Source: Planctomycetales bacterium (GTDB taxonomy: Bacteria; Planctomycetota; Planctomycetia; Pirellulales; Pirellulaceae). From it: a stretch of 49,771 bases of DNA. Of the stretch, positions 14,542 to 45,712 are shown piece after piece. The stretch lies in the NCBI GenBank assembly GCA_020426925.1, contig JAGQPC010000229.1, positions 1 to 49,771 of the forward strand, written 5' to 3'. The first letter of the stretch is position 1, and each line of letters opens with the position of its first letter. The notes beneath the pieces are model-generated. The model did no database searches and had not been told where the DNA came from. It worked only from the letters and a program-made list of their open reading frames with translations. The position numbers were made by a program, and so were the translations under genes.

Positions 14542-15900
14542 TCAATGCAATCCGTAACGGTTCATCTTGTAGTGCAGGGTGCGGACGCTCACGCCGAGTG
14601 CCTTTGCGGTGTTTTCACGGTGGAAATCGTTCGCGGCGAGAGCAGCTTGAATGGTTTCTTTTTCCGCTGCTTCGATTGCTTCCGTCAGCGTCAGGCCGGT
14701 TGCGGCGCTGGTGCTGGCGGTCGTCGCGAGTTCCGCCGGTAAATCGTTCGCAGTGATTTGATCATTGGCGACCGTGACAACGAGACGCTCGATGACATTT
14801 CGGAGCTGCCTGACGTTGCCAGGCCAGCTTGCCGCGGTCAAAATCTGGAGCGCTGTTTGATCGACGATTTTGGCTGCACGTCCATGACGCGAACAAAAGT
14901 GCGAAAGGAAGTGATCTACGAGCAGCGGGATATCGTCGCGTCGTTGTCGTAACGGCGGAATCTCGACCGGCACAACGTTGAGGCGATAGTACAGGTCTTC
15001 GCGAAACGAACCGTCCGCAACGAGTTGCGGTATGTCGCGATTGGTGGCCGATACGATTCTGGCATTCGATTCCAGGTTTTCCTCGCCGCCCACGCGAAAG
15101 AACTGCCTTGATTCCAAAACGCGCAACAGGTCTACCTGGCTCTTGGCTGGTATCTCAACGATCTCATCCAAAAACAGCGTGCCATCGATTGCTTGTTCGA
15201 AACAACCTGGCTTTTGCCGAGAAGCTCCAGTGAAGGCTCCTTTTTCATGGCCGAACAATTCGCTTTCGAGCAGTGATTCCGGCAGCGCTCCGAGATTCAC
15301 CGCAACGAATCGCCCTGACGATCGATCACTCAAGTCATGAATTGCTCGTGCAATGAGTTCCTTTCCTGTCCCGCTCTCACCACGAATCAGCACTGTCGCA
15401 TCGGTATCGGCCACCTGCTGGATCTGTTTGAGGACTTCTTTTAATGCTTGACAGTTGCCGATGATTCCAGAGACTTCGCCTGCTTTGGCAAGTCGATCTT
15501 TGAGCGCTCGGTTCTCGGTTTGCAGCCGATGGTGTTCTACTGCCTTCGCCACCTGCTGACGAATCAGCTCTAAATCGACAGGCTTTGTGATGAAGTCAAA
15601 CGCTCCGCGACGCATAGCCTCGACGGCTGTTTCAACGGTTCCGTGTGCGGTGATCACAATTGCCGTCGTGTCCGGTTCGCGCTGCCGCAAGAGCGAAATC
15701 AACTCCAGGCCGTCTCGATCACCAGGAAGGCGCACATCGGCGATGACCAGCTGAAATGTCCCAGCGTCAAATTTATCGAGCGCTTCATTCGCTGAACCGG
15801 CGGATTCAATTCTATCTGCGAGCTTTTCCAAGCCCTTCGCCAGCCCGGACCGAATGTTCGGTTCGTCGTCGACGATCAGAATGTGGAATGGATCATCCAT
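14542..15900 (-). CDS. Sigma54-dependent response regulator (NtrC family bacterial enhancer-binding protein)
   Basis: Receiver domain (ILIVDDEP ... VIADVRLPG). AAA+ domain with Walker A GESGTGKELIARAIH and the sigma54-contact loop GAFTGA (EKGAFTGAS). C-terminal Fis-type HTH (ENTAKALGVSVRTLHYKMNRYGL). Confidence 0.93.
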   Translation of the reverse strand: MDDPFHILIVDDEPNIRSGLAKGLEKLADRIESAGSANEALDKFDAGTFQLVIADVRLPGDRDGLELISLLRQREPDTTAIVITAHGTVETAVEAMRRGAFDFITKPVDLELIRQQVAKAVEHHRLQTENRALKDRLAKAGEVSGIIGNCQALKEVLKQIQQVADTDATVLIRGESGTGKELIARAIHDLSDRSSGRFVAVNLGALPESLLESELFGHEKGAFTGASRQKPGCFEQAIDGTLFLDEIVEIPAKSQVDLLRVLESRQFFRVGGEENLESNARIVSATNRDIPQLVADGSFREDLYYRLNVVPVEIPPLRQRRDDIPLLVDHFLSHFCSRHGRAAKIVDQTALQILTAASWPGNVRQLRNVIERLVVTVANDQITANDLPAELATTASTSAATGLTLTEAIEAAEKETIQAALAANDFHRENTAKALGVSVRTLHYKMNRYGLH

Positions 15901-15906
15901 GCACGA

Positions 15907-17277
15907 TTACTCGTTGGCGCTCGCGTGGCTTGCAGTCGGCAATGAGAAATTCAATTGAAACACTGTTCCACGCGGCGATGAGCGGAATTCCAAACTGCCG
16001 TCGTGCTGCCTCATGATCTTGTCGCATAACGCCAGTCCAAGTCCAGTGCCTTCGTCCTTTGTTGTAAAGTATGGATCGAAAATCTTGTCATGAAGTTCCT
16101 CTGGCACGCCGCAGCCTGTGTCGCTGACTTCAACGCAGATTGATTCCGAATCCGCAAATGCTGAGATCGTCACCTTTCCGCCGTCGGGCATCGCATCTAA
16201 CGCGTTGACGATGATATTGAGCAAGACTTGTTCCAATCGGCCAGAGTCGGCGAAAGGTTGTGGCAAATCCTTTGGCAGCTGTAGGTCAATCGCCACGGAT
16301 TGTGCACTAGCTTGCGGTGTGATGAGGTCAATTTGACGCTGGATCAATTGCTTTAGATCTACGCATGCAAGATTGAGCTTCCCAATTGACGCGAAGTCTC
16401 GAAACCCTTCCAGAACGCCGCCGACTCGCGCGACTTCTGTTTCGATCACACGCAGCATGTGACGTACTTCATCACACGACTCAGCGCCATCAGAGAGTTG
16501 CTCTTTTAGCAACTGCACATGCAGTGAGAGCGCGGTCAGCGGGTTTTTGATCTCATGGTGCAGGCCAGCTGCAAGCGACCCAAGTCCCATGTAGCGTTCC
16601 ATGCGACGCATGCGACTTTCGATTAGAAATCGATCGGTCACGTCGCGCAGCTGAAGGACGAAACCGATTTCTTGGTCGTCGATGTCGCTTAAAGTTTGGC
16701 AGAATGCCCGCAACACTCGAGCACCGTTTGCTGACAACTTGAAGTCTCGAGTCATTGCGACCGACTTTTCAACTATCCAGTCCTTTCGGAATTGTTCGAT
16801 TGGCACAAATCGAGAGAGTTCAGACAGAGGGTGTCCGACGCAGTTAATTTCCGGCCTCAGCATTTCCAAGCCGCGTCGGTTGATGCTGGTCACAATTCCG
16901 CTCAGGTCAGTTGTGATCACAGCTTGGTCCATGCAGCTGAGGATATCACCAGCTAGCGCTTTCAGATCACGCAGCGATTCCTGAGACGATCGGTAGGCTC
17001 GTGCCAACAGCACGACAGCGAATCCAGTAACGACCAGATTCAGAACAATCAATATGGACAATCGAAACTGCCATCGCAGCTCGCCTTCCAGAGCTTCAGC
17101 TTTATTCTTGGCAGAGACCGGAAGCTCTCGAATTAGTTCTCGAACAATCTGTTGTTCCGCCAGAAAGTCGACCATGACCCACACGGTTACAGCAAGTGCC
17201 AGCACACTTAACGCCAGCACAGCGACGATGGCGACTCGCCGCGTTCCGTCGGATTCGGCTTGCTTAACTCGAAACAT
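15907..17277 (-). CDS. Sensor histidine kinase (2 TM, short outer loop, PAS, HisKA, HATPase_c)
   Basis: H-box HHEIKNPLTAL, N-box LLNIIVNALDAM, and G-boxes DTGCGVP / GTGLGLAL. It lies 6 nt upstream of the response regulator. Confidence 0.9.
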   Translation of the reverse strand: MFRVKQAESDGTRRVAIVAVLALSVLALAVTVWVMVDFLAEQQIVRELIRELPVSAKNKAEALEGELRWQFRLSILIVLNLVVTGFAVVLLARAYRSSQESLRDLKALAGDILSCMDQAVITTDLSGIVTSINRRGLEMLRPEINCVGHPLSELSRFVPIEQFRKDWIVEKSVAMTRDFKLSANGARVLRAFCQTLSDIDDQEIGFVLQLRDVTDRFLIESRMRRMERYMGLGSLAAGLHHEIKNPLTALSLHVQLLKEQLSDGAESCDEVRHMLRVIETEVARVGGVLEGFRDFASIGKLNLACVDLKQLIQRQIDLITPQASAQSVAIDLQLPKDLPQPFADSGRLEQVLLNIIVNALDAMPDGGKVTISAFADSESICVEVSDTGCGVPEELHDKIFDPYFTTKDEGTGLGLALCDKIMRQHDGSLEFRSSPRGTVFQLNFSLPTASHASANE

Positions 17278-17370
17278 TTACGGGGCCTCTGCCGGAACGC
17301 TGAGTCCAGGATTTCTACAGCCCATTCATGCACGACAGCGACAAGCCGGTTGCTTTTGCCTCAACATTTC

Positions 17371-17406
17371 TGCAGCACGTTGCAGGTAACCTGCAAGATC
17401 TTGCAG
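17371..17406. promoter_or_regulatory. Two overlapping perfect palindromes, TGCAGGTAACCTGCA (17381-17395) and CTGCAAGATCTTGCAG (17391-17406); candidate regulator binding sites
   Basis: Read directly. TGCA(G/A) recurs at 17371, 17381, 17392 and 17402, about one helical turn apart. The sites lie in the 415-bp divergent intergenic region. Confidence 0.4.
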
Positions 17407-17581
17407 GCGTTATTCGTGATTGTATCGAGTTCGAAGAGGACTCGCAGCGCCACGCGTACTTCCCGCAGGGGTCGGGGCTTGAAATGAATCGTTCGAGTTC
17501 CTCGAAAGGCGATAGGTTTTTGTCACGTCGTATAGTGCAAAAGAACCCGGGATTTTGCTCGAGAACAAGACAGCTTTGCTC

Positions 17582-17604
17582 GGCCGGAGTCGCGAACTCC
17601 GGCC
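17582..17604. promoter_or_regulatory. Perfect inverted repeat GGCCGGAGT-N5-ACTCCGGCC; candidate enhancer (UAS) for the NtrC-type activator
   Basis: 9-bp arms centred about 90 bp upstream of the -24 GG, the usual distance for enhancer-binding protein sites. It is flanked by the direct repeat TTTGCTCG(A/G)G at 17554 and 17575, 21 bp apart. Confidence 0.4.
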
Positions 17605-17681
17605 TATGGCAGGCTCATGTGAGTACGTCAGCTGCTTGGTAGTCTCTGCGAAATTCTTGGATCCATTCCACTTTCGGAGTC

Positions 17682-17697
17682 TGGCACCTTAATTGCT
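17682..17697 (+). promoter_or_regulatory. Sigma54 (RpoN) -24/-12 promoter TGGCACcttaaTTGCT
   Basis: Exact match to the consensus TGGCAC-N5-TTGCW. It sits directly upstream of dabA and opposite a GAFTGA-containing activator gene. Confidence 0.75.
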
Positions 17698-17791
17698 AAA
17701 CGTTGGCTACACCATCCGAAGACGCTCGCGACACCATTTCAGCAACCGCGGTTTTCGGCATGAACGCCTACCCGCAGCCCTCAAGACGAAA

Positions 17792-20700
17792 TTGGGACAC
17801 GACGTGCCAGCTTTGGACCTCGAACAAACCCCCGCCCAAGATCAGCCAGCGTCGCGGCAATCTGCCATTCGCCATCAGATTGAGCACGCGGCTCATTTGT
17901 TACCGTCGCAGGGCCCAATTACAGTCTTTGTTCATCACAACACGCTTCACTCGTTTGAGCATCTCGACTTTGACGCTGGTGTCCAAGTTGGTGGTCGAAC
18001 GTTTGGTTGCAACGCTTATCTGACTGAGGAACAATACCGCGAAAAGCTGGATCGAGGCCGCATTCGCGTCGAAGATCTGGAAGCCGTTTTACAGGAAGAC
18101 CTTGGAGATGAGGCCGACCGCCTCGTGTCGATATTCTGTACAAGATATTCTTTGCGGCTTTCCATGCTTCAGTTTTCGATGCACACAGGGTCGACCCATG
18201 AGCTTCGTTGGGTTGTTGCGGAGACGGACGCACTTCGGCGGTTTCGTGAAGAAGTCACATACGGCATTCGAGCAGAAATGCTGTCCGACACTCGCAAGGC
18301 TGTTCTTGAGGGACCAGCGGACACGGCCGAGAAACGTGAAACGCTTGACGAAGTGTTGCAGCAATTTGAAGCGCCGGCTCCACAGAAGTGGACTGACCGC
18401 ACGTGGGAAGCGTTCGTACTGAACTATTTGTGGCGCGTGTGTTGTGATGGAGTTCAAGGGGTCGAAAGGTCGACCGACCCGAAAGCCTCAAGTGAAACGC
18501 CGGTCCGCCATCGTGATGTCATCATCGCAGCTGGCGGTGAAGATCCCGACTTACCAGTGCACGAAACGTTGATCCGATTTTGTGCGGCGTTTCTCGATCA
18601 GGGATTCGCAGATTGGGACTTGCCGGGTCGGGAGCTTGGGTTTTTCAGTGCCTTCCTAAGGCAGCATGCCGATGGCGTGGTGCCAACGCGATGGTTTCGG
18701 GCGCTCCGCCATGAGTGTCGCAGGCTGTTGGACGCAGGCACTAAACCGATGGATTCCATTGAGGAGTCGTTGAGCTTACTGGGCGTCGACGAAAGCGAGC
18801 AGGAAGCGTTCATCACACAGTCGTTGCTGGCGCTGCGTGGCTGGGCAGGAATGGTCTGGCAACTGGAAACGAATGCTGAGTGGGCTCCACACCCCGCGCC
18901 TCGCGATACCTTGATTGAGTTTCTCGCGATTCGGCTTGTGTTGGACCGAATCGCAATTGAGTTAGCAGCACGCGACATACCCAACTTCAACGCTTTGCTC
19001 GCAGAACTTCGCACCAGCTTCAGGCGCGATTACAATGAGCAATCGCTATCTGATCGCCTCGACCTGCGAGCCTTCACCGTATTTCAGCTGGCACAAGTTC
19101 TTGGCTGGAGGCCGCGAAGTCTTGAGAATCTCGCGCCGGAGCAGTGGGCCGTGCTGGTGAAGGAGATCGAGTTGTTTCCCTCGATGGAACGTCGTCGTAT
19201 TTATCATCGAGCCTTTGAAAGAAAGTATCGGAACGAGACACTCGACGCCGTCATCGCTCATAATCATCTGACGCATCCGCAGCCATCGTCGCCACCACTT
19301 TTTCAGGTAATCACTTGTATCGATGATCGCGAAGAATCGTTTCGTCGGCATTTAGAGGAGATTTGCCCCCAGTGTGAGACGTTTGGGGTTGCCGGTTTTT
19401 ATGGTACTGCGATGTATTACCGAGGGCTTGGACACGCACATTTCAAGCCGCTATGTCCTGTGTCGATCAAACCGTCTCACCGCGTGGTCGAAGAGCCGGT
19501 TTACTCACAGGCAGAGCTAGAAAGGCAGAAATCGGCAGCTAGGCGGCGTCTTGGGAAGTTAAGTCATCAGACGCATCGCGGTTCCCGATCTTTTTTTGGC
19601 GGGATTCTAACGGCGCTCGCCGGATCGCTGGCAGTGTTCCCGTTGGTTGGTCGAGTCCTGTTTCCTCGTGCAACATCGAAGATCCGATCATGGTTGGGGC
19701 GGATTGTCGAAACGCCAGCCACTGAATTGCGGATCGAGCAGGTTCCGGACGAAGATCCTGAAGGAATGGGCTTTACGATTGGCGAAATGGCCGACATCGT
19801 TGAAGGAGTGGTTCGTTCATCCGGCCTCGCCGTCCAATACTCTCCATTGGTCTTCGTCTTGGGGCACGGTTCAACGAGCCTGAACAACCCGCACGAGTCC
19901 GCGTATAACTGCGGCGCGTGCGCAGGCAGTCAAGGCGGTCCCAACGCGCGAGCCTTTGCGATGATGGTCAACGATCATCGCGTTCGCCGCATTCTTGCTG
20001 ACCGAGGCCTGAACATTCCAGACTCAACGGTCTTTGTCGGTGGCTACCACGATACCACGAACGAGTCGATCACATTTTCAGACCTTGATAGGCTTCCAGT
20101 TTCACACCGCAATCAATTTGAAAAGGCAATCGACATACTTACCGAGGCGAGAGTGCGAAATGCTCACGAGCGATGCCGTCGATTTGAGTCTGCGCCGCTG
20201 ACGATGTCTGCCGAAGACTCGCTTCGCCATGTTGAGGACCGCCCCGAGGATCTTTCTCAGGCTCGACCGGAATACAATCATGCAACCAATGCGCTTTGCT
20301 TTGTCGGGCACCGCAAATGGAGCCGGGGGCTGTTCCTTGATAGGCGGGCATTTTTGGCCTCATACGATCAGTCGCTTGACGACGAAGATGGAACGATTCT
20401 GGAAACGATTCTCCGGGCAGCTATTCCAGTCTGCGCGGGCATTAGTCTCGAGTACTACTTCTCTACTGTAGACGTCGAAGGGTATGGGTGTGGTTCAAAG
20501 TTGCCACATAACATCACATCGATGTTAGGGGTAATGGCCGGTGCCGCGAGCGATTTGAGACCGGGTTTGTCTCAGCAGATGATCGAAATCCATGAACCGA
20601 TGAGGTTGCTATTTGTCATCGAGACGAGTCTTGCTGCGATGACGCGAATCATCGAAAACAACGAGGCAATCGCTCGGCTCGTGAGAGGTGGATGGGTCCA

Positions 20701-20893
20701 GTTGGCCGTGTTCGATCCGGTCACCCGGCACGTTCATCGCTACGTTCGTGGCGAGTTCGTGCTCTATGCACCGCATGAACGAGACATCCCAACGGTTACA
20801 TCGTCGCTCAGCTGGTACGGCGGACACCGTGAACATCTTGGATTCGCATCCATCGTTCGCCCAGGGAACGAACGCCAAGGAGGCGAAGTATGA
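17792..20893 (+). CDS. dabA: DabA (DUF2309/UPF0753), catalytic subunit of a DAB-type inorganic carbon pump; 5' end uncertain
   Basis: Family-wide motifs are present: [34 protein letters not shown]...[10 protein letters not shown] (CxDxR), [47 protein letters not shown] and PMRLLFVIE. These match what I recall of the Bacillus YbcC / DabA family. The ORF-track TTG at 17693 lies inside the sigma54 promoter. No in-frame ATG precedes the conserved core, so the in-frame candidates are TTG 17792, GTG 17804 and TTG 17813. Confidence 0.9.
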
Positions 20894-22281
20894 CTTTGGA
20901 TCAGTGGTTTTTTGGATTCGGTTTGGCAGTTGTCCTCAGCCCCGCAGTTCTATTGGCCGCGCTGGGCATGACCCCGCTGGCGGGTCGCAAGGTCAGCGAG
21001 CGCACTTCGGCACACCTGACGGAAGCCACTATTGTTGTTGGATTGGTCTCCGCCCTGGCGATTCTTGTTCTAATGCTCGCAACAGGTCGCAGGCACATTC
21101 CAATTGAACTTGGCAATTGGGTCGTGATTCCAGAGCAACATTTTCATTTCCACCTGAAGTTCGTCTTTGACCGTTTGTCCGTGCCGTTCGCGATCTTGTC
21201 GTTTGTCCTTTGCGGAACGATCGGTGCTTTTACGAGTCGTTATTTACACCGCGAACCGGGCTACAACAGATTCTTTCTTCTGTTCGCGGTCTTCCTTGTG
21301 GGGATGATTGTATCGTCACTCGCGGGCACTATTGAAACTCTTTTCTTCGGCTGGGAATTCGTGGGATTGTCCTCGGCGCTGCTGGTCGCATTTATTCAAG
21401 AACGAGTCAATCCAGTACGAAACGGACAGAGAGTTTGGGCGATCTATCGCGTCGCAGATGCAGCGTTCTTGATCGCCGCGCTTGCGTTGCATCATCTGAC
21501 CGGCGCCGGAGACTTTGAGGGGTTGATGGGGACAGGTGCATGGCCTGACGGACAAGCTACGATTAGCGAATCGCATGCACTTTTTGTTGGGATGCTCTTG
21601 TTGCTGGCGGCTGCAGGGAAATCGGCCCTGGTGCCGTTTTCTGGATGGCTGCCGAGAGCCATGGAAGGGCCTACACCCTCTAGTGCGATTTTCTATGGTG
21701 CATTGTCAGTCCATCTTGGCGCGTTCCTTTTGCTTCGCGTTAGCCCTTTGCTGGAAGTTTCATTGCCACTGTGCATCGCGGTGGTTCTAGTCGGGTTGGT
21801 CTCTGCAATATTTGGTGCGTTGGCGGCACGAGTGCAGACCGACATTAAGAGCGCGCTCGCGTTTGCCTCACTGACTCAAGTCGGAATCATTGTTGCCGAG
21901 ATTGGGTGCGGGCTGCGTTACGTCGCACTCATCCATATCATTGGCCATGCCTGCCTGCGGACATTGCAACTGTTGCGAGCACCCACGCTACTGCACGACT
22001 ACCACGCACTTGAAAACGCGATTGGTGGGCACCTGGAGCACGCTCCTACGATTTGGTCACGACTACTTCCCGACCGTGCTCGAGCGTTGGTGTATCGAGT
22101 AGCAATGGAACGTGGGTTCCTAGATGCCGTCCTGAAGGAATGCTTCGTTCGGCCATTCTTGTTGCTGTTCCGATGGTGTGATGGGATGGAACGCCGCTGG
22201 ACGGATCTGCTGTCCGGCGCTGAATCGTGTGGATCCGACCAGGTCAAACCGCACGTCGATTCATTTGAGGAATTCGTCTGA
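20890..22281 (+). CDS. dabB: DabB, NuoL/NdhF-like proton-conducting membrane subunit (PF00361 type)
   Basis: Motifs [13 protein letters not shown] and [32 protein letters not shown] parallel the NuoL motifs GWEGVGL and KSAQ.PF..WLPDAMEGPTPVSAL. The ATGA overlap with the dabA stop (20890-20893) implies translational coupling. Confidence 0.85.
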
Positions 22282-23684
22282 TGCCTGAACTTCACTTACC
22301 GTGGATGGAAGTGTCCATCCTGATTCCGCTCCTGGGCGCGATCGTCGTCGCGTGCATCAAAGACTCTGCGAAGGCCAAGATTGTGTGTCTTGTGGCTTGC
22401 AGCCTAACGCTGATATTTGCGGCAGGTGAATGGATCGATTTTGCCGGCCTCGACACCTTTGAAGCTCATGATCATTGGGATGTCTTCCAGGCTGTATTCC
22501 ATCGCGACGTGTTTGTAATCGATGAGCTCAGTGCACCCCTGCTGCCGCTGGCAGCTTTACTTTACCTGACAACTGTCATGACGACGTTGCGGACAAAGGC
22601 AAGCCGGTTCTCGTTTGGCTGGACGCTGTTTTCAGAATCTGTCCTGCTCGCCACGCTCGCCTGCCGACATCCGTGGGTGATCATTATGTTGCTTGCGGTC
22701 GCGGCTGTTCCACCGTGGCTGGAACTTCGTCACAGAAATCAAAACACACGAGTCTTTACCGTCCACATGGGCATCTTTGTGGGGCTTCTTTGTTTGGGGC
22801 AGTTCCTTGCTGGCCGAGGAGCGACGGCTGCAGATCCACCGATCATTGCTGGTTGCCTTCTGACAGCTGGAGCCCTGATTCGAAGCGGAATTTGTCCTCT
22901 CCATTGCTGGATGACGGACTTGTTCGAAAAAGCTACATTCGGCACGTCGTTGCTGTTCGTGACTCCGATGACCGGAGCCTACGCAGTGATGCGTCTGGTC
23001 TTCCCGATCGCGCCTGCTTGGGCGCTGCAAAGCATTGCAATCCTGTCATTGATCACAGCCGTGTACGCTGCTGGGATGGCTCTCGTGCAAACGGAATCGC
23101 GGCGTTTCTTTTGTTATCTGTTCTTGAGTCATAGCTCGCTGGTGCTGGTTGGCCTTGAGCTGGGAACGCCAATCGGGTTGGCCGGCGCACTCTGCGTTTG
23201 GTTGTCCGTAGGAATCTCGCTGCTAGGATTTGGAATCGCGCTTCGCTGTATCGAGGCACGCACGGGACGCCTGACGCTCGACAAATATCACGGCCTTTAT
23301 GAGCACACGCCGTTTCTGGCGAGTATGTTCCTGTTGACCGGACTGGCTTCGATCGGATTTCCTGGGACCATTGGATTCATTGGCGCCGAACTGATCGTGG
23401 AGGGTGCGGTCGAAGTCTACGCGTCCGTTGGGTTGGCCGTCGTCTTAGCTGCGGCTCTTAACGGGATTGCCGTGGTGAAGGCGTATTTCCACGTCTTCAC
23501 GGGAACACGCCATGCGGCGGCTGTGCCGATCCATTCCCGCCTTGGCGAGCGAATTACGATTCTTGTCATGGTCGCGCTGATTGTGGGCGGAGGACTCATT
23601 CCACAGCCCGGCGTTGCATCGCGCTACCATGCCGCGCGTGCAGTGTTGGAACACCGGCACCCGTCGCAGTCGCCGCAACATTGA
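22281..23684 (+). CDS. Second antiporter-like membrane subunit (NuoM/NdhD/MrpD-like, PF00361 type)
   Basis: Polytopic protein with [28 protein letters not shown] and [36 protein letters not shown]. The start overlaps the dabB stop (TGATG at 22279-22283). Confidence 0.75.
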
Positions 23685-23693
23685 AGGAACACC

Positions 23694-24455
23694 ATGCAAC
23701 ATTCTCGACAAGCACGTTGTGGCGACTTTTTGTTTCGTTGGCGGAGCTATTTGCCTATTCTGTTTCTGCCATTCTTCGCGTACAGCTTCCTGACGTTCTC
23801 GTACCTGTGGAACTCGCACACACTGCAGCACGTATGGGCCGCAGGTTGCGTGCTGGTAGCTCTCATTGGTCTGTTGGTTCGAGGCCTAACAGTCGGATTT
23901 GTTTCAGATGGAACCTCGGGCCGCAATACGCGGAAGCAACGAGCTGAAGAACTGAATACTACGGGGATGTATTCGATTTGCCGGAATCCTTTGTATTTAG
24001 GAAATCTGCTGATTTGGGTTGGAGTGTTTTCCTACACCCGAAACGTCTCAATTGTCGTCATTTTTGTCCTGACGTTCTGGCTTTACTACGAGCGAATCAT
24101 TGCCCGAGAGGAAGTCTTTCTATTGGGCAAGTTCAAACGCGAATACCGTGACTGGTGTCGCGAGACGCCTGTCTTTGTGCCAAATCCGTTCTTGTGGAGT
24201 GCGCCCGCGCGGAGGTGGTCAACTCGGATGGTGTTGCGCCGCGAGTACACATCAATACTGGCGATCGGATTGGCGTTCTTTGCCATGGATACGGCGGCGC
24301 ATTTTGGAGTTGAGAAAAAAATCTATGTCGATCTGAGTTGGACGTTGTTCGCGGTGTCGTGTGGTCTCGTGTACATCGTGCTGAGGTTTCTGAAACGACA
24401 CACGAGCGTTTTGAATGCCCCGAATGACTTGCCAGCCGACGCTATGAACGGCTGA
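23694..24455 (+). CDS. Isoprenylcysteine carboxyl methyltransferase (ICMT)/phospholipid methyltransferase-family membrane protein
   Basis: Polytopic protein with the family motif GMYSICRNPLYLGNLLIWVGV ... ERIIAREEVFLLGKFKREYRDW. It starts 9 nt after the upstream stop, with AAGGA ahead of the ATG. Confidence 0.7.
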   Translation: MQHSRQARCGDFLFRWRSYLPILFLPFFAYSFLTFSYLWNSHTLQHVWAAGCVLVALIGLLVRGLTVGFVSDGTSGRNTRKQRAEELNTTGMYSICRNPLYLGNLLIWVGVFSYTRNVSIVVIFVLTFWLYYERIIAREEVFLLGKFKREYRDWCRETPVFVPNPFLWSAPARRWSTRMVLRREYTSILAIGLAFFAMDTAAHFGVEKKIYVDLSWTLFAVSCGLVYIVLRFLKRHTSVLNAPNDLPADAMNG

Positions 24456-24506
24456 CATCTGGAATGGAGATCGCGCCCGAACCGCAATGTTCGGAAGGAA
24501 TATCAA

Positions 24507-26480
24507 ATGAACAAAGAACTTGAAACCGCAATACCACGCGGCGACGCCAGTGGATTCGTGACGTACCTGAAGCAAGATCTCGTGTCGGGACTGCTCGTGT
24601 TTTTGATTGCTTTGCCGCTGTGTCTTGGCATTTCGATCGCTAGCGGCTATCCGCCAATTGCAGGTATTTTCACTGCGATCATCGGGTCGATCCTAACGAC
24701 GTTTATCAGCAACAGCGAACTTACAATTAAAGGTCCAGCCGCCGGCCTGATCGTCATCGCAATCGGCTGCATCAACGATTTCGGTGGTCCTGAAAGTCAT
24801 GACGCTTATCGGGCCGCGTTGGCGGTTGGTGCGGCTGCAGCCGTCCTGCAGATTTTGTTCGGGATATTTCGCGCCGGAATACTCGGCGAGTTTTTTCCGA
24901 CTTCCGCTGTACACGGCATGCTTGCTGCGATCGGTGTCATCATCATGATTAAGCAGGTTCCGGTAGCCTTGGGCGTGACCGCAAAGGGTGAACCGCTGGA
25001 AATGCTGCGTGAGATTCCACATTATGTCATGGAGGCCAATCCGGCGATTGCTTGCGTCGGACTGGTCAGCATCGCGATCATGTTTTTGTGGCCCATGGTC
25101 GGAAAACGCGTTGCGCTGCTGAAGAAAATTCCCGCGCCGCTGGTAGTGCTGCTAGTCGCCGTGCCCCTAGGGTTCGCGTTCGATTTGCTGCATGAGCATT
25201 CCTACACGCTACAGGGGCACAAGTATCAACTAGGCGAGCAATATCTCGTTCGGATGCCTGACCGCATGTTTGGAATGTTCGATGACATTACGTTTCCGGC
25301 ACTCGGGACACTTGCTCAACCAAAGGCGTGGAAGTGGGTCTTGATGTTCTTCATCATCGGGAGTCTTGAATCGCTTCTCAGTGCGAAAGCCGTCGACCTG
25401 CTCGATCCGTGGAAGCGCAAGACCAGCATGGACCGCGATGTTCTTGCTGTCGGCGTTGCCAACTTGTGCGTTGCCAGTGTTGGTGGGCTGCCAATGATTT
25501 CGGAGATTGTCCGATCGAAGGCCAACATCGACAACGGAGCGAGAACTCGCTTCGCCGATATGTGGCATGGGATATTTCTGCTCGCCTGCGTCGCCTTGAT
25601 TCCAATGGTGCTTCACCAAATTCCGTTGGCGGCACTTGCCGCAATGCTTGTGTATACGGGTTATCGGCTCGCTCATCCGACCGAGTTTGTTCACGTCTAC
25701 CGGATCGGCAAGGAGCAGCTGGCAATATTTGTAACGACGCTTGTTGTTGTACTCGCGACGGACCTTTTAATTGGCGTGGCAGCAGGGATCATTCTAAAAA
25801 TGGTGATTCACGTTGCGAACGGCGTTCCTATCAAGTCGCTGTTCAAGCCATACATTGAGGTGCAGGAGGTTGACGCGACGACCAGTTTGATACTGGCGCG
25901 GGAATCGGCTGTCTTTAGCAATTGGATTCCCTTTCGCAGACAGATTGAACAGATTGGGCTCGTTCAAAAACGCAACCTGATCGTCGACGTTTCCAATACA
26001 AAACTCGTCGACCACAGCGTTATGGAAAAGTTCGAGGAAATGGAGCGAGACTTCGAACAAGAGGGATTACGGTTTGAAGTTCGAGGACTCGATTCGCTTC
26101 AGCCTCTTGCTAACGACGCCCACGCAGCCAGGAAGCGAGGGTTGGCCTCGATTCGCCGCCTGATCATTGTCGCCGACAAGGAACTGGAAGATTGGTTAGA
26201 ACGCGAGTTTGTGGCATGCGGTTCGTCGGGATTCACAGTGATGCCCTGTAGCGGGGCTGGGCGACGCGGGATACGAGACGGGCAAATCAACAAGACTCCT
26301 CAAATACGAATTGAAGTCGTCGTTCCATTCGACGTGTGTAATCGCATTCTTGATTTTCTGCGAAGAGACATACTGCCCGATCATAGAGTGACGGCATGTG
26401 TGGAAACTGTCGACGTTGTTCATATTGGCCATTTCACGCCCGAATTGTCGGATGTTGAAGTGGCCTCGGAGCACGTATGA
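24507..26480 (+). CDS. SulP-family anion (candidate bicarbonate) transporter with a STAS domain and an extra C-terminal PII-like domain
   Basis: SulP N-terminal signature [30 protein letters not shown] and about 10 or more TM segments. STAS region [13 protein letters not shown]...[22 protein letters not shown]. The last ~110 aa have a beta-alpha-beta / loop / beta-alpha-beta pattern that aligns to GlnB. Confidence 0.85.
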
Positions 26481-26726
26481 CAAACGATCCCGCGAACTGC
26501 ACACTAGCACCGTCGGTTGGCACCTATGTAACACAGCCGCAAAGCGAGTCAATATATCTGTAGTGCAAGAAAACTTCGCTATTGCAGCTTGAGACAGTGC
26601 GCTAGTCGTCGTCTCAAGATGGATACACACGTCTGTGGCTGGACTATTGACGACGGTATGCAAATGTACTCGGCAATGATTCCGAGCGAGAGCGGTTGCA
26701 GGCAGCCGGCCGGTAATAACTGAAAT

Positions 26727-27371
26727 TCATCCAATTCGGTCGGTGGCTATCCTGTATGCATCAGCGATCTCTTCTGGATCGTTGATCGTGACATTTAGAT
26801 CACGCAGCAAACCGTCTTGGAGTCCGTAAATCCAGCCATGCACCGCAAGAGTTTGAGCTCGTTCCCACGCTTCTTGAACCACCGTCGTATGACAAACGTT
26901 GAGGGCTTGCTCGACAACATTTAGCTCGCACAACCGGTCCAATCGCTCGTCATCGTCACCGATGATGCGGAGCACTCCATCATGCTTTTGCCGAACGTCT
27001 CGAATATGTCGCAGCCAGTTGTCGATCAGGCCCAGATGATGATTTTGGGTGGCAGCTTTGACGCCACCGCAACCGTAATGTCCGCACACAATGATGTGTT
27101 TGACCTTCAGAACGCACACTGCAAATTCAATGACGCTGAGACAATTGAAATCGGTATGAACTACGACGTTCGCGATATTGCGATGTACAAAAACCTCGCC
27201 AGGGATTAGGCCAACAATCTGATTGGCAGGTACTCGGCTGTCTGCGCAACCGATCCAAAGAACTTCAGGCGTCTGCTTTTCGGCGAGCTTCTTAAAAAAG
27301 TCCGGGTCTTCTTGGGTCATGGAGTCGGCCCAACTCCGGTTGTTTTCGATCAGTTGGGGTAAGAAGCGCAT
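26727..27371 (-). CDS. can: Beta-class carbonic anhydrase, E. coli Can-like
   Basis: Colinear with E. coli Can as I recall it: EDPDFFKKLAEKQTPEVLWIGCADSRVPAN (CxDxR), VFVHRNIANVVVHTDFNCLSV, HIIVCGHYGCGGV (HxxC) and LCELNVVEQ. Confidence 0.93.
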   Translation of the reverse strand: MRFLPQLIENNRSWADSMTQEDPDFFKKLAEKQTPEVLWIGCADSRVPANQIVGLIPGEVFVHRNIANVVVHTDFNCLSVIEFAVCVLKVKHIIVCGHYGCGGVKAATQNHHLGLIDNWLRHIRDVRQKHDGVLRIIGDDDERLDRLCELNVVEQALNVCHTTVVQEAWERAQTLAVHGWIYGLQDGLLRDLNVTINDPEEIADAYRIATDRIG

Positions 27372-27508: not shown

Positions 27509-29461
27509 CTATCTCCGCCGACGGGTCGCGCGATTCTTCACTGACTTTTCAGCTTGGACTGTGGCTTCTGCCCGATCGATTGCCCCGTCACGATTCGCGT
27601 CGAAATTGCGAAAAGCAAATTGACCAAAAGTTTTGGGGAGCTCTGATTCTACCAATCGACCGTTGTTGTCTTTGTCGAATCGTTTAAAAAAGCGGTCGAC
27701 CGTTTTCTTGACCAACCGCGATTCAGGAGTCTCAGCGGTCTCTGGCGGCTGAATTGTTTTCGGATCAACGGGCACCGAAATGCTGCAGTAAGTCAGCATC
27801 ATTTCGTCTTCCGACTGCTCGCCCCAGCGAACCGTTCGCGAAGGATCTGGGTTCGTCGGGTTACTCGCCGAATTGTCATAACGGGCTTCACACAGAATTC
27901 GCGTTTGAGCATCGAGCGCAATAGGTCGCTCCAATTGATAGGTGTGCTGCCAATTGTAGTCGTAATCGGGAACGTCCAGCAGAATCGAAGATTCCTTGTC
28001 GCGGCGAATTGTGCAGCGAAACGATTTCCCACGAAGATGCATGTGAGGCGATAGCGACAACAGCATCGCCTCCTTGGGGAACTTGCTTAGTGACGCTCCG
28101 ACTCGATGATTTGCCGCGTGTGCTGGAATGGCAAACGATCGGTTCTGTGCCAGCATTGTGAACACGCGCTCGGTTACAGCGTCTGGGTCCGCAAAGACAA
28201 TACCAATTCGCGTTACATCTGTTTGTGTTCGTCCTGTCGGTGTGTAGTGCAGTTGAAAAACCAATTTTGAACCGGCAGGAACGAAGTAAGCTTGGTGAGA
28301 CTTCAACCGCGTGACATCTTGCCCTGGGACATAGGCGGCGAGCCAGCTCATCGCTTTTTCGCCCCACTCGTCAGGCGTCACGACCGACACGATTGAATGA
28401 TGGACAACACCGCGGTTTCCGGGGACAACTTCCGCGGCCGCAATCCATTGATCTTCTTTAAATCCTGGATCAACGGTGAAGTACTGATACTCGATAATTC
28501 CTTCGGCGGGCACACGAAAAGGAACCTTCGACATTTCGAATACTGCGTCGGGCTCCTTTTCTAATCGCCAACCGTCCACGAACTTGCGAGGTGCAGGCAA
28601 ATCGGATTCATCACCATACGGAGCGTCAGCCTTCACCCAATCGTAAATCAGCTGTTTCTCTGATGGTGATAAACGACGAGCATTCAAGAACTTTCCATGT
28701 TGTGGATCGGCGCTCCACGGAGGCATGCGTCGATCCTTGACAACTTCGGCAATCATATCCGCCCATCCGACTAATTCGCTGTAGTCGTCCATTTGGAACG
28801 GACCGATGTCTCCGTCACGATGGCACTCGGCACAGTGTTTCTGAAACAACCGAGAAATCTGATTGCAGTATGTCACCTTATATTCGCTGCTTGGTTTCTT
28901 CACTCGGCCGATGATACATCCCACAGATTCTGTCGACGAATTTGAGACCGAATCACCGCTGAGCAGTTCTTCTACTGCAACTCGCAAATCGTGTTTCGTG
29001 GGAGCCGCGCGAACGTAGCCGACGCCGTACTGGTCATCGATTCGACCGTGGTAGCGCACAACTCGGTTTCCGTCCAGAACGAAGACTTCCGGCGTTCGCG
29101 TAGCCATGAGCTGATCGACGATTGCATTGTCATTATCTCGTAGAATCGAAAACTTGATTCCGAGTTCTTTTGCGTACTCTTGAATATCGGCCATTGAATC
29201 TTGCGAATTGGCGTTAACTCCGATGACGGCAACTTCTTTCGAAGAGTACTCGTCGGCCAATTGCTGAAGTCTGGGACCATAGAGTTTCGCCAAGGGGCAT
29301 TCCGTTCCCAGCACGGCAACCACGACGACTTTGGAATCAGCAAAGCTGGATAGCGCGCAGCTTCGACCATGCTGATCGTGAGCCTCAAATTCCGAGACCG
29401 GACTGCCGATGGGAGATACCGCTAGCGTGACCGCCGACAGCGCGTGCAATAAAAATGTCAT
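27509..29461 (-). CDS. Multidomain redox protein: redoxin/AhpC-TSA-like + c-type heme motif + copper type II monooxygenase (PHM/DBH)-like + two EF-hands
   Basis: Thioredoxin-fold region VVVVAVLGTECPLAKLY has a single Cys and no CxxC. Heme motif CAECHRDGD. Cu-ligand-like series VVHHSIV, FQLHYTP, PHMHLRG, DEMMLTY. EF loops DKDNNGRLVESE and DANRDGAIDRAE. The ATG at 29461 (MTFLLHALSAVTLAVSP) is preferred to 29500. Confidence 0.8.
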   Translation of the reverse strand: MTFLLHALSAVTLAVSPIGSPVSEFEAHDQHGRSCALSSFADSKVVVVAVLGTECPLAKLYGPRLQQLADEYSSKEVAVIGVNANSQDSMADIQEYAKELGIKFSILRDNDNAIVDQLMATRTPEVFVLDGNRVVRYHGRIDDQYGVGYVRAAPTKHDLRVAVEELLSGDSVSNSSTESVGCIIGRVKKPSSEYKVTYCNQISRLFQKHCAECHRDGDIGPFQMDDYSELVGWADMIAEVVKDRRMPPWSADPQHGKFLNARRLSPSEKQLIYDWVKADAPYGDESDLPAPRKFVDGWRLEKEPDAVFEMSKVPFRVPAEGIIEYQYFTVDPGFKEDQWIAAAEVVPGNRGVVHHSIVSVVTPDEWGEKAMSWLAAYVPGQDVTRLKSHQAYFVPAGSKLVFQLHYTPTGRTQTDVTRIGIVFADPDAVTERVFTMLAQNRSFAIPAHAANHRVGASLSKFPKEAMLLSLSPHMHLRGKSFRCTIRRDKESSILLDVPDYDYNWQHTYQLERPIALDAQTRILCEARYDNSASNPTNPDPSRTVRWGEQSEDEMMLTYCSISVPVDPKTIQPPETAETPESRLVKKTVDRFFKRFDKDNNGRLVESELPKTFGQFAFRNFDANRDGAIDRAEATVQAEKSVKNRATRRRR

Positions 29462-29633
29462 CTGTTCCTTCGTTCTGTTCCGCCTCAGGCCGTGCCTCAA
29501 ATCGACCTGATCGCCAAGGAGGGCACGTTCGTATTGTGCCCAAAGTGATCGACCATGTCACCTCGAAATTGGAACTTTTACTCACAATCGATGAGAATGC
29601 CGATTGTGCCGCCGATTTAGATCGCGATTTGAA

Positions 29634-30127: not shown

Positions 30128-33100
30128 CTACCAGCGTGTTAACCAAGCAATTACAAGCGTACCGAGAACAATTACCCAACCGAAGAGACTGGGTTGCAAG
30201 AAAAGCCACCAAGCAATACCGCACACGATCGCACCGGTGTAGATCCAAAGATCTGCCTCCGTAACAGAAATAGGCTTGAATCGACTTTGGATCGCAAACA
30301 CACCGACAAATACGGCAATCATTGCGGATGCCAGGCGAAGCAATACGGGCGTTTGGTCGACTTGTACAAACTTCACGCGTACTTCACGGATCGGCTCGGT
30401 TCGCACAGATCGAAACGCCGTGTTGAAGTTTGAATAGGGATCCGAAAGCGAGTAGGTTGTTTCCACGTACTCTGGATTCGAATCCAATTTCCGGTCGTTC
30501 AGATAGAATTCGACATTGTCAACGTCAGCCGTGATACGAAATTGCCACGTTGTCTGCTCCGGATGCAGCATTTGATCGGATTCACTTACCGACGTTGATA
30601 ACTGCACGAACTTGGGGAACTCGACGATTTGAAATGCTGCTCGCGAGACATCAAACTGGGCCGTTGTCCAAACGACACGCAGTCGCTGTTCCACTGACGA
30701 TCGGGCAAACGGCAAAGTAACATAGCCGTCACTTTCTGATACGGGAACAACGGCTCCGTTTATCGAGATTTGCTTGACCACACAACCGTCTGGTTTGGTA
30801 AAAGCAATGCCCCCGTCTCCTTGAACGACAATTGAAACATCTGATATGACTTGAGGCTGCGGTCGGTCGCAGACGGTGTGGCGAACGTCAATTACTCGCG
30901 ACGAACCGTCATCGACATCTGTGTTTGATTTCACTAGCGATGCGTCGGGTGACGAAACGAGATACACGTCATAGTCGCTCACGTCGAAACCAAAGCTGGT
31001 CGTGGTACTGTCGAGCGACTCCATGCCAATCGGCAACCATTCGTCCTCGGTCTCTGAAGAGTTCATTGCCACGAAAAATCGGCTGACATCACCATTAGTG
31101 ACGCCGATTTGAGCGGTCAAGCGTTCATCAGTTGCAGCTATCTCTCCGCTAAGGTCAATTGTGTCGCCTTTGCGGAACGGAACTGCCGGCCGCAACACAA
31201 CGATTTGCTGATTTGGAAATGGAGACGGCATCAACGCCACGGTAATAGCGTTAACCGTGATCGGGCGTTCCCAACTAGCCGGCAAAAGGAGTCGGATCGA
31301 GTCACACGAGTCGCTCGCACCGCTGCTGCGAACGTTATTGATGCGGCATTTCAAGTTGTAACTATACGCATCGCCCGCTGGCGCAAAAAGTAACAATGTC
31401 TCCAAATCGACGCTGCTGTCTGTCCTTTCAACATTCAGTGTCATCATGGCATTGTCCGCAGTTTTGCTCCACACTGATTGTCGGAACGCTGAGGTAGTAT
31501 CACGAGAAATACCTGCGACGTCCTGTGTTGCGGCTGTCGCTGTTTCGTACCCCGAGGCAGCGACATTCACAACCTGGATTCCCGGCTTTCGATAGATCGA
31601 TAGTTGTTCACCTACCTTGAGCATGTTCGGAATCGCAACCGATCCGCCCGAATGCCGCAGTTGCCCGCGTATGCGAAGCCTAGCCTGTCCAGTTCGCCTT
31701 TCCGGCAGAAAAACCGCGACCGAGTTACTGTCAGCTCGCGACCAGTTGAGCGAATCATTACCGGTTTCTGCCAACATTGAAACTTCTTTCACAATAACGT
31801 CGTCGGGAACCGGCAAGCGAACCTGATAAAGAGACTCTGCACTCAAATCCAGAGTCGCGGTGATGATCAGATCCGATTGAAGCTCTCCAACGAGCAGCGA
31901 TGCTTGGAGAGATGCCTCAGTTTGAAACGCCCTAGATTCGAATGCGAAGACACAGCTGTAGTTCGCGGCATCGTTAATTGTATAGGTGTACGTTGGAGGG
32001 GGCGTGGCGGTTTCCCAGACTTCCGAAAACAAGGAAGATGGAATCGACGAGATGCCTACGGTTCGCCAAGGAGTCATGGCGCGAGTGTTATTGCTCGATG
32101 CAGCAATGATGCTCGACACGACTTCCGCGCCCGTCACATGGACTCTAGGGATGCGGATTTTTCCGACGCTGGTAACTCCTGCAATGTCAAAATGAACATG
32201 AATCAACGCTTCCGTTTCAGATAAGATGTGAGGAGCAAAAGAGAGACGCGTGCGATTTCCATCGAGTTGATCCACACCGAGCGGTTGGTCACCGCTCTCG
32301 TTAGGGACTAGTCGAGAATCGACGACGACATCAAGCGGTCCGAATTTTCCCGCCATCGACTGCAGCAGGAGCCTCAACTCGTACCGAACGCTGTCTTTGT
32401 CAACTTTAAGCCAACCAATCTGTGTCGCTGTTACTTTGCCGTCCAGGCCTTTGCTGTCGTCGGCAGTCCACGTTAGATCTAACGTTTCAATTGGACCCAG
32501 AAACGCTGTGACTTCACGCTGCTGAGTATCGCGCTCAACTCTGCCAATGGAACGAACGCGAATTGCATTTGTATCAAGGAACGACGACAGCTGAACCGTT
32601 GAATCGGAGACCTTTACGATAGGAATCGATATTGAGTTGTCGGCTCCATTGGAAGAAACAGGCACCACATACGTCAGCTCCAATTCGTAGTGATTCCTGT
32701 CTTCAAACGACAGATTCAACGTCTGTGTGTCGACATCTTGTTGTAAGACAATTGGTTTCCGATCGAGCCTCGCCTCCAATTGCAAAAAACGCATAGCTTC
32801 CGGCGGAATGGGCAATCGGACCAGCACATCGTCATTTAGCGTTTCAATTTCATAGATGCCTGTGATTTGAACAGTGTCTTCTGCGGATACTTGGGCTAGC
32901 GTCGCTCGGTAATTCACTGATCGCAATAACCATTTTGCGGCGAGTCCTTTCGCTCGGGCGTCGTATTCGAGCAGGCTATCGTGGAAGGTTCGCGACAAGT
33001 AGACGTTGTCATTTTCTTTGTCTGGATCACCGTTTTCGTCGATGGGCACGTAAACGCTTTCCAGGCGGTTTGGTGCTGAGGTATATGGTTGATCTTGTGC

Positions 33101-45400: not shown

Positions 45401-45712
45401 GAGCTGGTGGCAACATCCGGCACTGCGCGAAGTCTTGAAGAAGCTGACATCCCTGTCGAACGAGTCAAGAAGCTCGCAGAAGGTCATCCCAACCTGGTCG
45501 ATTATCTCATCGATGGTAAGGTCTCCTTGATTCTCAACACGCCGAGCGGCAAAGGTGCCCGCACCGACGAAGGCAAAATTCGGGCATCGGCTGTCCAACA
45601 CGGAGTGTCTAGCATTACAACAATCCAAGCGGCAGAGGCAGCGGTCATGGCGATGGAAGCGTTACGCGAGGAAGAAATGAACGTTGAAGCAATCCAAGAT
45701 CGCTTTGCATAA
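42470..45712 (+). CDS. carB: Carbamoyl-phosphate synthase large subunit
   Basis: GTG start. N-terminus [37 protein letters not shown]. Duplicated ATP-grasp halves (second half [26 protein letters not shown]). C-terminal MGS-like domain. 1080 aa. Confidence 0.97.

Follow-up and report, generated by a model that had tools for sequence, protein, structure and literature searches.

Organization of the Locus

The DNA analysed here is a window of 49,771 nt from a Planctomycetales bacterium of the Pirellulaceae (assembly GCA_020426925.1, contig JAGQPC010000229.1). It carries a five-gene block on the plus strand, headed by dabA, the gene for the catalytic subunit of a DAB-type CO2-hydrating complex. 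Divergently from this block, a sensor histidine kinase and a response regulator of the bacterial enhancer-binding protein (bEBP) type are encoded. As read from the sequence, the locus is likely to represent one sigma-54-dependent operon together with a divergent two-gene sensor system that controls it, serving the acquisition of inorganic carbon. The positions of the individual features are collected in Table 1.

Genes were called for the proteins of the window from the listing of open reading frames (ORFs), Pfam profiles and NCBIfam profiles with their equivalog cutoffs. An earlier note on this DNA had described the kinase and a GAFTGA-containing activator as divergent from the plus-strand block, with a Can-like beta-carbonic anhydrase converging on it. 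Every gene named there was found again at its position, and the carbonic anhydrase scores above the equivalog cutoff. The junctions within the block are also exactly those reported: an ATGA overlap between dabA and the NuoL-like gene, a TGATG overlap, a 9-nt gap and a 51-nt gap. The domains, the gene overlaps and the lack of a convincing terminator inside the block support its description as a DAB-type operon. The term 'island' used for the region is a loose one. The G+C content is flat across the region when the composition of the window is considered, and the flanks consist of ordinary planctomycete genes (PSCyt1/PSCyt2/PSD1, DUF1501 and a MoxR/DUF58/transglutaminase set); therefore, 'island' is not to be read as horizontally acquired, a reading for which the composition gives no support.

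Table 1. Features of the dabA locus, in coordinates of the window.
Feature	Position	Strand	Basis
Sigma-54 enhancer-binding response regulator, AtoC-like	14542..15900	-	Pfam REC + Sigma54_activat + AAA_lid_14 + HTH_8
Sensor histidine kinase, AtoS-like	15907..17277	-	Pfam HisKA + HATPase_c
Candidate enhancer (upstream activating sequence), TGCA-N6-TGCA-N7-TGCA-N6-TGCA	17371..17405	no strand	Pattern conserved across loci
Inverted repeat, perfect 9-bp stem	17582..17604	no strand	Between enhancer and promoter
Sigma-54 promoter, TGGCAC-N5-TTGCT (-24 GG / -12 GC)	17682..17697	+	Zero-mismatch consensus match
dabA, 1029 aa, beta-carbonic-anhydrase-like catalytic subunit	17804..20893	+	PF10070, 779 bits, full profile
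NuoL-like membrane subunit (DabB equivalent), 463 aa	20890..22281	+	Proton_antipo_N + Proton_antipo_M (PF00361)
NuoM/NdhD-like third subunit, full-length, 467 aa	22281..23684	+	PF00361, 96 bits
PEMT/ICMT-family membrane methyltransferase-like gene	23694..24455	+	Pfam; LmtA-like below cutoff
SulP-STAS-PII-like fusion	24507..26480	+	Pfam SulP + P-II
Can-type cytoplasmic beta-carbonic anhydrase	26727..27371	- (convergent)	NF007756, 302 bits vs cutoff 251

Sigma-54 Promoter and TGCA Array

The kinase start codon and the dabA start are separated by a 526-bp region. On the dabA strand, it contains TGGCACcttaaTTGCT (17682-17697), the sole zero-mismatch match to TGGCAC-N5-TTGCW in the window, located 107 bp ahead of the dabA start (GTG 17804). 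Transcription is predicted to begin near position 17709, leaving a leader of ~96 nt. The start codon at GTG 17804, giving a protein of 1029 aa beginning with MPALDLE, follows from an alignment with six orthologues. The mechanically assigned ORF start, TTG 17693, was rejected: it overlaps the promoter, and the alignment favors the GTG. No sigma-70-like site was scored in the intergenic region, and no Rfam match to a riboswitch or other known RNA was found in the 96-nt leader or the whole window.

Farther upstream, ~275 bp from the -24 element and 94 bp from the kinase start codon, the segment TCTGCAGCACGTTGCAGGTAACCTGCAAGATCTTGCAGG holds an array of four TGCA tetramers (17371-17405), with start-to-start distances of 10, 11 and 10 bp. 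They form two TGCA-N6-TGCA dyads whose centers are 21 bp apart, i.e., two helical turns. The array is unique in the window, even at two mismatches allowed, and neither a second array nor a second sigma-54 promoter, even with mismatches, is present for the Can gene or elsewhere in the window. A sigma-54 promoter facing the kinase gene, as positive autoregulation would have it, was sought and rejected, as none occurs in the window and none is consistent across the related loci.

The verified enhancer of E. coli AtoC consists of two adjacent 20-bp sites, GCTATGCAGAAATTTGCACA and an inverted partner, each containing TGCA-N6-TGCA or TGCA-N6-TGCG (PMC3118216, Table 5). The planctomycete array shares with it the dyad and the two-site layout upstream of a sigma-54 promoter, with an inter-dyad spacing that is 2 bp longer. 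The TGCA array is probably the binding site of the activator because AtoC and AtoS are the best matches of the regulator and kinase, and the dyad equals that of the verified AtoC site.

Between array and promoter, the window also contains a perfect inverted repeat, GGCCGGAGT-N5-ACTCCGGCC (17582-17604), which is unique in the window and shows no obvious conservation elsewhere. It could be the site of a bending protein or of a second regulator, or an upstream hairpin.

Conservation of the Circuit among Planctomycete DAB Loci

A DabA-seeded scan, with one genome per species, yielded 80 loci. All are labelled Planctomycetota, except a metagenome-assembled genome deposited as Verrucomicrobia (L028) and an 'uncultured bacterium' (L041). 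The joint test for array, promoter and regulator pair was made on the 71 loci with at least 700 bp upstream of dabA, accepting one mismatch at most in the array and requiring a GG-N10-GC promoter downstream of it. Array and sigma-54-like promoter precede dabA in 23 of these loci. The array and an adjacent pair occur together in 15 loci, the array alone in 8, the pair alone in none and neither in 48 (Fisher p = 5e-10); for the 8 loci with the array alone, the pair is not in the flank examined. The earlier note had proposed a search of DabA (PF10070) neighborhoods for sigma-54 activators, and this is its outcome: the orthologous pair is found in 15 of the 71 loci, in all cases with the array. 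Upstream of dabA, 14 of 72 loci carry a sigma-54 motif that departs from the consensus at one position or none; at the background rate of these loci, ~0.7 would be expected. Exact copies of the array number 25 in 1.6 Mb of DabA and regulator-orthologue loci, with none in 772 kb around paralogous enhancer-binding proteins and none in shuffled sequences. Two loci with an adjacent pair (L012 and L028) have degenerate GG-N10-GC elements at the right place.

The three proteins most closely related to the DabA of the window (68-70% identity) are encoded on metagenomic contigs L161-L163. On each of these contigs, the pair is divergent from dabA and the array is present. The promoter is present in L161 and L162. 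In L163, the DabA N-terminus is over-called and includes the array, and the promoter is absent from the stretch scanned. The same arrangement also exists in cultured strains (L038, L040, L044 and L064); the cultured carriers are Roseimaritima sediminicola JC651, Aporhodopirellula aestuarii, Rhodopirellula sp. SWK7 and Planctomycetaceae bacterium SH139, the last being L064, with the complete genome CP197414.1.

In five loci (L019, L047, L079, L012 and L162), other genes stand between the pair and dabA, and a second array is found beside the kinase gene. These second arrays beside distant kinase genes suggest that the regulator pair is autoregulated, though no consistent sigma-54 promoter faces the kinase. 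In L162, the intervening gene encodes a malic enzyme.

One could suppose that the pair is a chance neighbor controlling something else and that promoter and array are fortuitous or serve autoregulation alone. The array is, after all, just 94 bp from the kinase start codon, and some orthologous pairs reside away from DAB genes (L082 and L084). However, the order and position of array and promoter upstream of dabA are kept in 23 loci, including 15 of 15 with adjacent pairs; moreover, where the pair is distant, separate arrays exist at both pair and dabA, and a sigma-54 promoter consistently facing the kinase gene is missing. Such a coincidence is, hence, highly improbable. On the contrary, the operon is very probably under the control of the adjacent bEBP and sigma-54, given the perfect -24/-12 promoter and an array that accompanies all 15 adjacent pairs. 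Sigma-54 control had earlier been deduced from gene adjacency alone; the promoter and the conserved array now support it from the DNA itself.

Starting from the regulator instead, 12 orthologous loci were retrieved, several of them too short to judge. A DAB operon adjoins the regulator orthologue in two of the 12 (L081 and L086). Another of the orthologous loci, L091 (8604-21119), contains a more distant pair orthologue (58% regulator identity), the array at 11351 and a promoter, TGGCACaaactTTGCA, at ~11506. Downstream are genes for three PTS-EIIA-like proteins, two of them with an HTH_17 domain, followed by two ~660-aa PF00361 proteins, a NuoH-like and a NuoK-like protein and a third PF00361 protein. 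DabA is not among them.

In DAB loci lacking the circuit, the genes closest to dabA on its upstream side, at ~1-3 kb, are often those for an OmpR-type regulator and a kinase (6 loci), for a beta-carbonic anhydrase (5) or for NhaA (3), as tallied in L013, L026, L032, L053, L057 and others. DAB operons thus seem to have recruited signal-transduction systems repeatedly. The regulator had been called 'dedicated' to the operon. This holds for a subset of DAB loci; it does not extend to the roughly two thirds that lack the circuit, some of which have an OmpR-type system, nor to the regulators found away from DAB genes.

The Kinase/Activator Pair

The response regulator has a GAFTGA motif at residues 221-226, a phospho-acceptor aspartate at D55, a Sigma54_activat domain scoring 233 bits and a Fis-type helix-turn-helix domain (HTH_8), as in a bEBP. 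Its best NCBIfam match is AtoC (463 bits, below the cutoff of 714), while that of the kinase is AtoS (257 bits, below the cutoff of 646). With both scores under the equivalog cutoffs, the pair is classified as related to AtoS/AtoC and not as orthologous. The kinase gene is upstream of the regulator gene, at a distance of 6 nt. The regulator orthologues form a discrete group with 58-75% identity, compared to at most 46% for paralogues.

Two transmembrane (TM) helices, a 33-residue external loop, a cytoplasmic PAS region and an H-box at residue 240 were recognized in the kinase. From the short loop and the cytoplasmic PAS region, it probably reads an intracellular or membrane-level cue. The architecture of the regulator is the same as in the AtoS/AtoC-atoDAEB system of E. 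coli, but the planctomycete kinase is without a large periplasmic domain. The targets differ as well: AtoS/AtoC acts on short-chain fatty-acid catabolism, whereas the putative target here is an operon for inorganic-carbon uptake.

A Predicted Three-Subunit DAB-Type Complex

The function of DAB complexes is established (Desmarais 2018, bioRxiv 10.1101/476713; Lo 2026, PMC13144422; Phillips 2026, bioRxiv 10.64898/2026.05.01.722082). The planctomycete DabA matches DabA2 of Halothiobacillus neapolitanus (PDB 9rd0_A) with E = 3e-68. Its zinc ligands, C505, D507 and the His and Cys of the GHGS...NCGAC segment, align with C351, D353, H524 and C539 of DabA2. A hydrophobic segment (residues 597-615, from hydropathy) falls in the region matching the membrane-inserting 'finger/elbow' described in two 2026 cryo-EM studies (PMC13144422; bioRxiv 10.64898/2026.05.01.722082). 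The NuoL-like subunit, with ~10-11 TM helices and a soluble C-terminal tail of ~110 aa, aligns with DabB2 over TM1-11 (E = 7e-26). Among 62 orthologues, E156 (TM5), K244 (TM7) and the H349/H353/R357 triad (TM8) are invariant.

The tail of this subunit (window 21943-22281, residues ~352-463) is conserved and non-hydrophobic, with the motifs YR..ERG..D and PF...FRW.D..ERRW. It has no Pfam match and no counterpart in the aligned part of DabB2 or NuoL.

Thus, the PF10070 subunit, the same Cys-Asp-His-Cys zinc site and the NuoL-like PF00361 partner are all shared with the DAB2 of H. neapolitanus (DabA2/DabB2). By its zinc ligands and NuoL-like partner, the planctomycete complex is assigned to the DAB/DAC/MpsAB type, with pump activity predicted; presumably, it hydrates CO2 in one direction, driven by the proton gradient, as DAB2 does. 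Some differences exist. DabA counts 1029 aa, compared to 870 aa in DAB2, and the strong alignment is limited to the C-terminal half; the NuoL-like subunit is 463 aa long, compared to 551 aa for DabB2. DAB2 is encoded by two genes, whereas the planctomycete loci have three conserved genes, so the complex falls outside the DAB2 subtype. Finally, LysR/Crp-type regulators have been implicated for the DAB of H. neapolitanus, in contrast to the putative sigma-54/bEBP control here.

The third membrane protein has ~13-14 TM helices and is conserved up to 81% identity. Over residues 6-439, it aligns end to end with residues 8-468 of NdhD3 (6tjv_D, E = 3e-16). R201 is invariant, at the position of NuoM K234. 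E370, likewise invariant, is displaced by one residue relative to NuoM E407. The protein has nothing equivalent to the TM5 Glu or the TM8 Lys. The possibility that this gene is the C-terminal half of a split dabB was rejected: both genes encode full-size membrane proteins with N-terminal helices. The end-to-end alignment with NdhD3 and the universal conservation of a separate gene also rule it out.

DAB1, known from Thermocrinis albus and H. neapolitanus, is a heterotrimer of DabA, DabB and DabC. DabC is half as large as NuoM and falls into no Pfam family, and its proton-path positions are occupied by hydrophobic residues (bioRxiv 10.64898/2026.05.01.722082). The three-subunit plan, with a third membrane protein beside the NuoL-like subunit at the NuoM position, is common to both complexes. 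The third subunit of the planctomycetes is, on the contrary, a full-length PF00361 protein of 467 aa, and it is by the description of DabC that the two are set apart. A full-length protein of the NuoM/NdhD type with invariant R201 and E370 therefore differs from the DabC of DAB1. The gene order differs too, being A-B-B2 here and A-C-B in the DAB1 of H. neapolitanus.

The cyanobacterial NDH-1MS (NdhF3/NdhD3/CupA, PDB 6tjv) likewise joins two antiporter subunits, one NuoL-like and one NuoM-like, to a zinc-dependent protein for CO2 hydration; the planctomycete complex is thus its analogue in layout. The locus nevertheless lacks the NDH-1 redox arm, and DabA is unrelated to CupA. While NDH-1MS is coupled to electron transfer, the planctomycete complex would presumably be coupled to the proton gradient.

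The order dabA, NuoL-like, NuoM-like is found in all loci with sufficient contig, except L065, L076 and L162, which look like incomplete or decayed assemblies. In L162 (13099-14653), the NuoL-like gene is shortened to 302 aa, and directly after it comes a 226-aa product with a P-II domain alone, which looks like an internal deletion, decay or mis-assembly.

The SulP-STAS-PII Protein

The last gene of the block encodes a protein with a SulP transporter core, followed by a STAS region and, at residues ~548-640, a PII-like domain (P-II domain PF00543, 37.6 bits; cutoff, 25). Among solved structures, the latter domain is best matched by TTHA0516 (2cz4, E = 7.5e-11) and, weakly, by SbtB (E = 0.01). 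Among 1.84 billion cluster representatives, 167 relatives of the domain were found, the long ones being SulP-(STAS)-PII fusions. No description of a SulP-PII fusion was found in the literature. A SulP-PII gene follows the NuoM-like gene in ~45 of the 80 loci and is upstream of dabA in a few.

Taken together, the analysis points to an anion transporter, probably for bicarbonate, that contains its own PII-like regulatory domain. The protein belongs to the SulP family, as the bicarbonate carrier BicA does, though it is no BicA orthologue, so that bicarbonate is proposed as the substrate from the operon context and the SbtA/SbtB precedent. In that precedent, SbtB is a PII-like protein gating a bicarbonate transporter; in the planctomycete protein, the PII-like domain is part of the same chain as the SulP carrier, following its STAS region.

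Sporadic Neighbors and Flanking Genes

The other members of the neighborhood recur rarely. Among the 80 loci, the methyltransferase-like gene is at the same position in only one other (L079), and its role as a conserved DAB accessory was, hence, rejected. Its product reaches 186 bits with LmtA (TIGR04571), below the cutoff of 325, and belongs to the PEMT/ICMT superfamily only. Likewise, a Can-like carbonic anhydrase recurs beside the operon in only one other locus (L001), and a different beta-carbonic anhydrase clade is found upstream of dabA in several loci. The Can-type enzyme (Pro_CA, 184 bits) has neither array nor promoter and is therefore outside the predicted regulon; it is most plausibly an equilibrium enzyme that is expressed separately. 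The earlier count of 'three independent inorganic-carbon functions' is consequently overstated, with a convergent Can gene that lacks array and promoter and whose adjacency recurs in 1 of 80 loci, and with a SulP protein that is not BicA.

Directly adjoining the Can gene, a 663-aa protein (27509-29500) has an AhpC/TSA-redoxin domain at its N-terminus and EF-hand motifs at its C-terminus, an unusual architecture. Farther along the window, two very large minus-strand ORFs of 2270 and 1132 aa (30128-40254) have zero Pfam matches. The carB gene (42470-45712), for the large subunit of the bicarbonate-consuming carbamoyl-phosphate synthase, is located 16 kb from the operon, probably by coincidence. 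On the other side, a DUF1501 gene is split into two adjacent ORFs (1614-3065; profile positions 2-84 and 92-390), probably as a result of a frameshift, a pseudogene or a sequencing error.

In L161, the longest contig among the close relatives, a NiFe-hydrogenase cluster (18056-22633) is encoded immediately downstream of the SulP-PII gene. It comprises the large and small subunits, a HycI-like protease and FeS/NAD-binding subunits.

Proposed Mechanism and Alternatives

In the proposed mechanism, the membrane kinase would sense a cue, presumably the limitation of inorganic carbon, and phosphorylate D55 of the AtoC-like enhancer-binding protein. The activator would then occupy the two adjacent TGCA-N6-TGCA dyads, and DNA looping and ATP hydrolysis would open the sigma-54 closed complex at the promoter. 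The three-subunit DAB-type complex would use the proton gradient to convert CO2 irreversibly to bicarbonate in the cytoplasm, and the SulP protein would transport an anion, probably bicarbonate, gated by its own SbtB/TTHA0516-like PII domain. For the host, which is probably a heterotroph, this would amount to an inducible, high-affinity supply of bicarbonate for carboxylases when CO2 is scarce, with the Can carbonic anhydrase as a separately expressed housekeeping route.

Several observations weigh against an inorganic-carbon operon controlled in this way. Two orthologous regulators (L082 and L084) are located beside RND efflux genes, with no DAB genes within 10 kb, and in L091, the same array and a perfect promoter precede a complex-I-like module without DabA; from these non-DAB regulators, it follows that the signal need not be inorganic carbon. 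About two thirds of the planctomycete DAB loci are without the circuit. The NuoL-like subunit scores ~140 bits with NuoL/ND5 of complex I, compared to 94 bits with DabB2, and the SulP protein reaches 110 bits with the BicA equivalog, whose cutoff is 880, with generic SulP and DauA models scoring higher. An adjacent cytoplasmic Can, if co-expressed, would dissipate the bicarbonate disequilibrium. Finally, rpoN is not encoded in the 50-kb window; for Planctomycetia, it is known from the literature only, in which sigma-54 regulons have been reported for this class (PMC12316311).

The strongest rival is a pH, ion or energy-stress explanation, according to which the operon is a module for ion/pH homeostasis or membrane energetics, induced by alkaline, sodium or energy stress, with CO2 hydration supplying protons to the cytoplasm. 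NhaA, encoded just upstream of dabA in 3 loci, would fit such a role, as would the kinase without a sizeable external domain and the homologous circuit that L091 has ahead of PTS-EIIA-like and complex-I-like genes without DabA. Moreover, MpsAB has been proposed to be a Na+/HCO3- symporter, as cited in Lo 2026 (PMC13144422). However, the same study describes DAB2 as not acting as a sodium transporter, the zinc site of DabA is intact here, dabA repeatedly has beta-carbonic anhydrases (5 loci) and SulP-PII genes as neighbors, and the PII-like domain resembles the carbon-signalling SbtB. This explanation is accordingly considered unlikely, although it deserves more weight than any other alternative.

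The relatives Gimesia, Rhodopirellula, Crateriforma and Calycomorphotria are heterotrophs, which counts against a true CO2-concentrating mechanism (CCM) feeding autotrophic carbon fixation by the host. DABs are components of such mechanisms in chemoautotrophs, one related locus (L074) is labelled Candidatus Kuenenia, and the hydrogenase cluster of L161 adjoins the operon. Nevertheless, no RuBisCO or carboxysome genes are present in the window or in the related flanks examined, and a cytoplasmic Can is encoded next door. A CCM in the strict sense is, hence, very unlikely, and the expression 'CCM-like' used earlier for the module goes too far for a window without RuBisCO or carboxysome genes. 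An inducible bicarbonate supply in a heterotroph is preferred.

Significance

Taken separately, the family of DAB pumps, activation through sigma-54 and gating by PII-like domains are well known. What is new is their combination in a defined enhancer/sigma-54 circuit for a DAB operon and, in the same combination, a DAB lineage with a full-length third antiporter-like subunit plus a SulP-STAS-PII fusion. The earlier note knew of no described bEBP/sigma-54 circuit controlling a DAB operon, and this stands: no paper connecting sigma-54 or enhancer-binding proteins to DabA, DUF2309 or MpsAB was found in full-text searches. Inorganic-carbon genes go unmentioned in a 2025 survey of sigma-54 regulons in which Planctomycetia are covered (PMC12316311), and reviews of the inorganic-carbon toolkit mention neither such regulation nor planctomycetes.

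A more specific proposal can be put forward, tentatively and with doubts prevailing: that the pair is a dedicated sensor of inorganic-carbon status, that the pump is an unrecognised DAB class with the NuoM-like subunit taking part in proton transfer, and that the SulP carrier has a built-in PII-like sensor of nucleotide or bicarbonate. If true, this would be the first two-component, sigma-54-dependent response pathway to CO2/bicarbonate, and the new DAB class would connect the minimal DAB1 and DAB2 with CO2-hydrating modules of the complex-I type (NdhF3/NdhD3/CupA).

DAB pumps are widespread in heterotrophs, pathogens and autotrophs, and their structures were solved only in 2026. For the control of their expression, essentially no account exists outside the LysR-type regulation of autotrophs. 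The locus offers a complete, testable model, with a sensor kinase, an activator, a two-dyad enhancer and a sigma-54 promoter. Furthermore, the full-length NuoM-like subunit bears on the role of DabC, and the SulP-STAS-PII fusion on the gating of bicarbonate carriers. A tight off/on sigma-54 cassette for a CO2 pump may also be of use in engineering.

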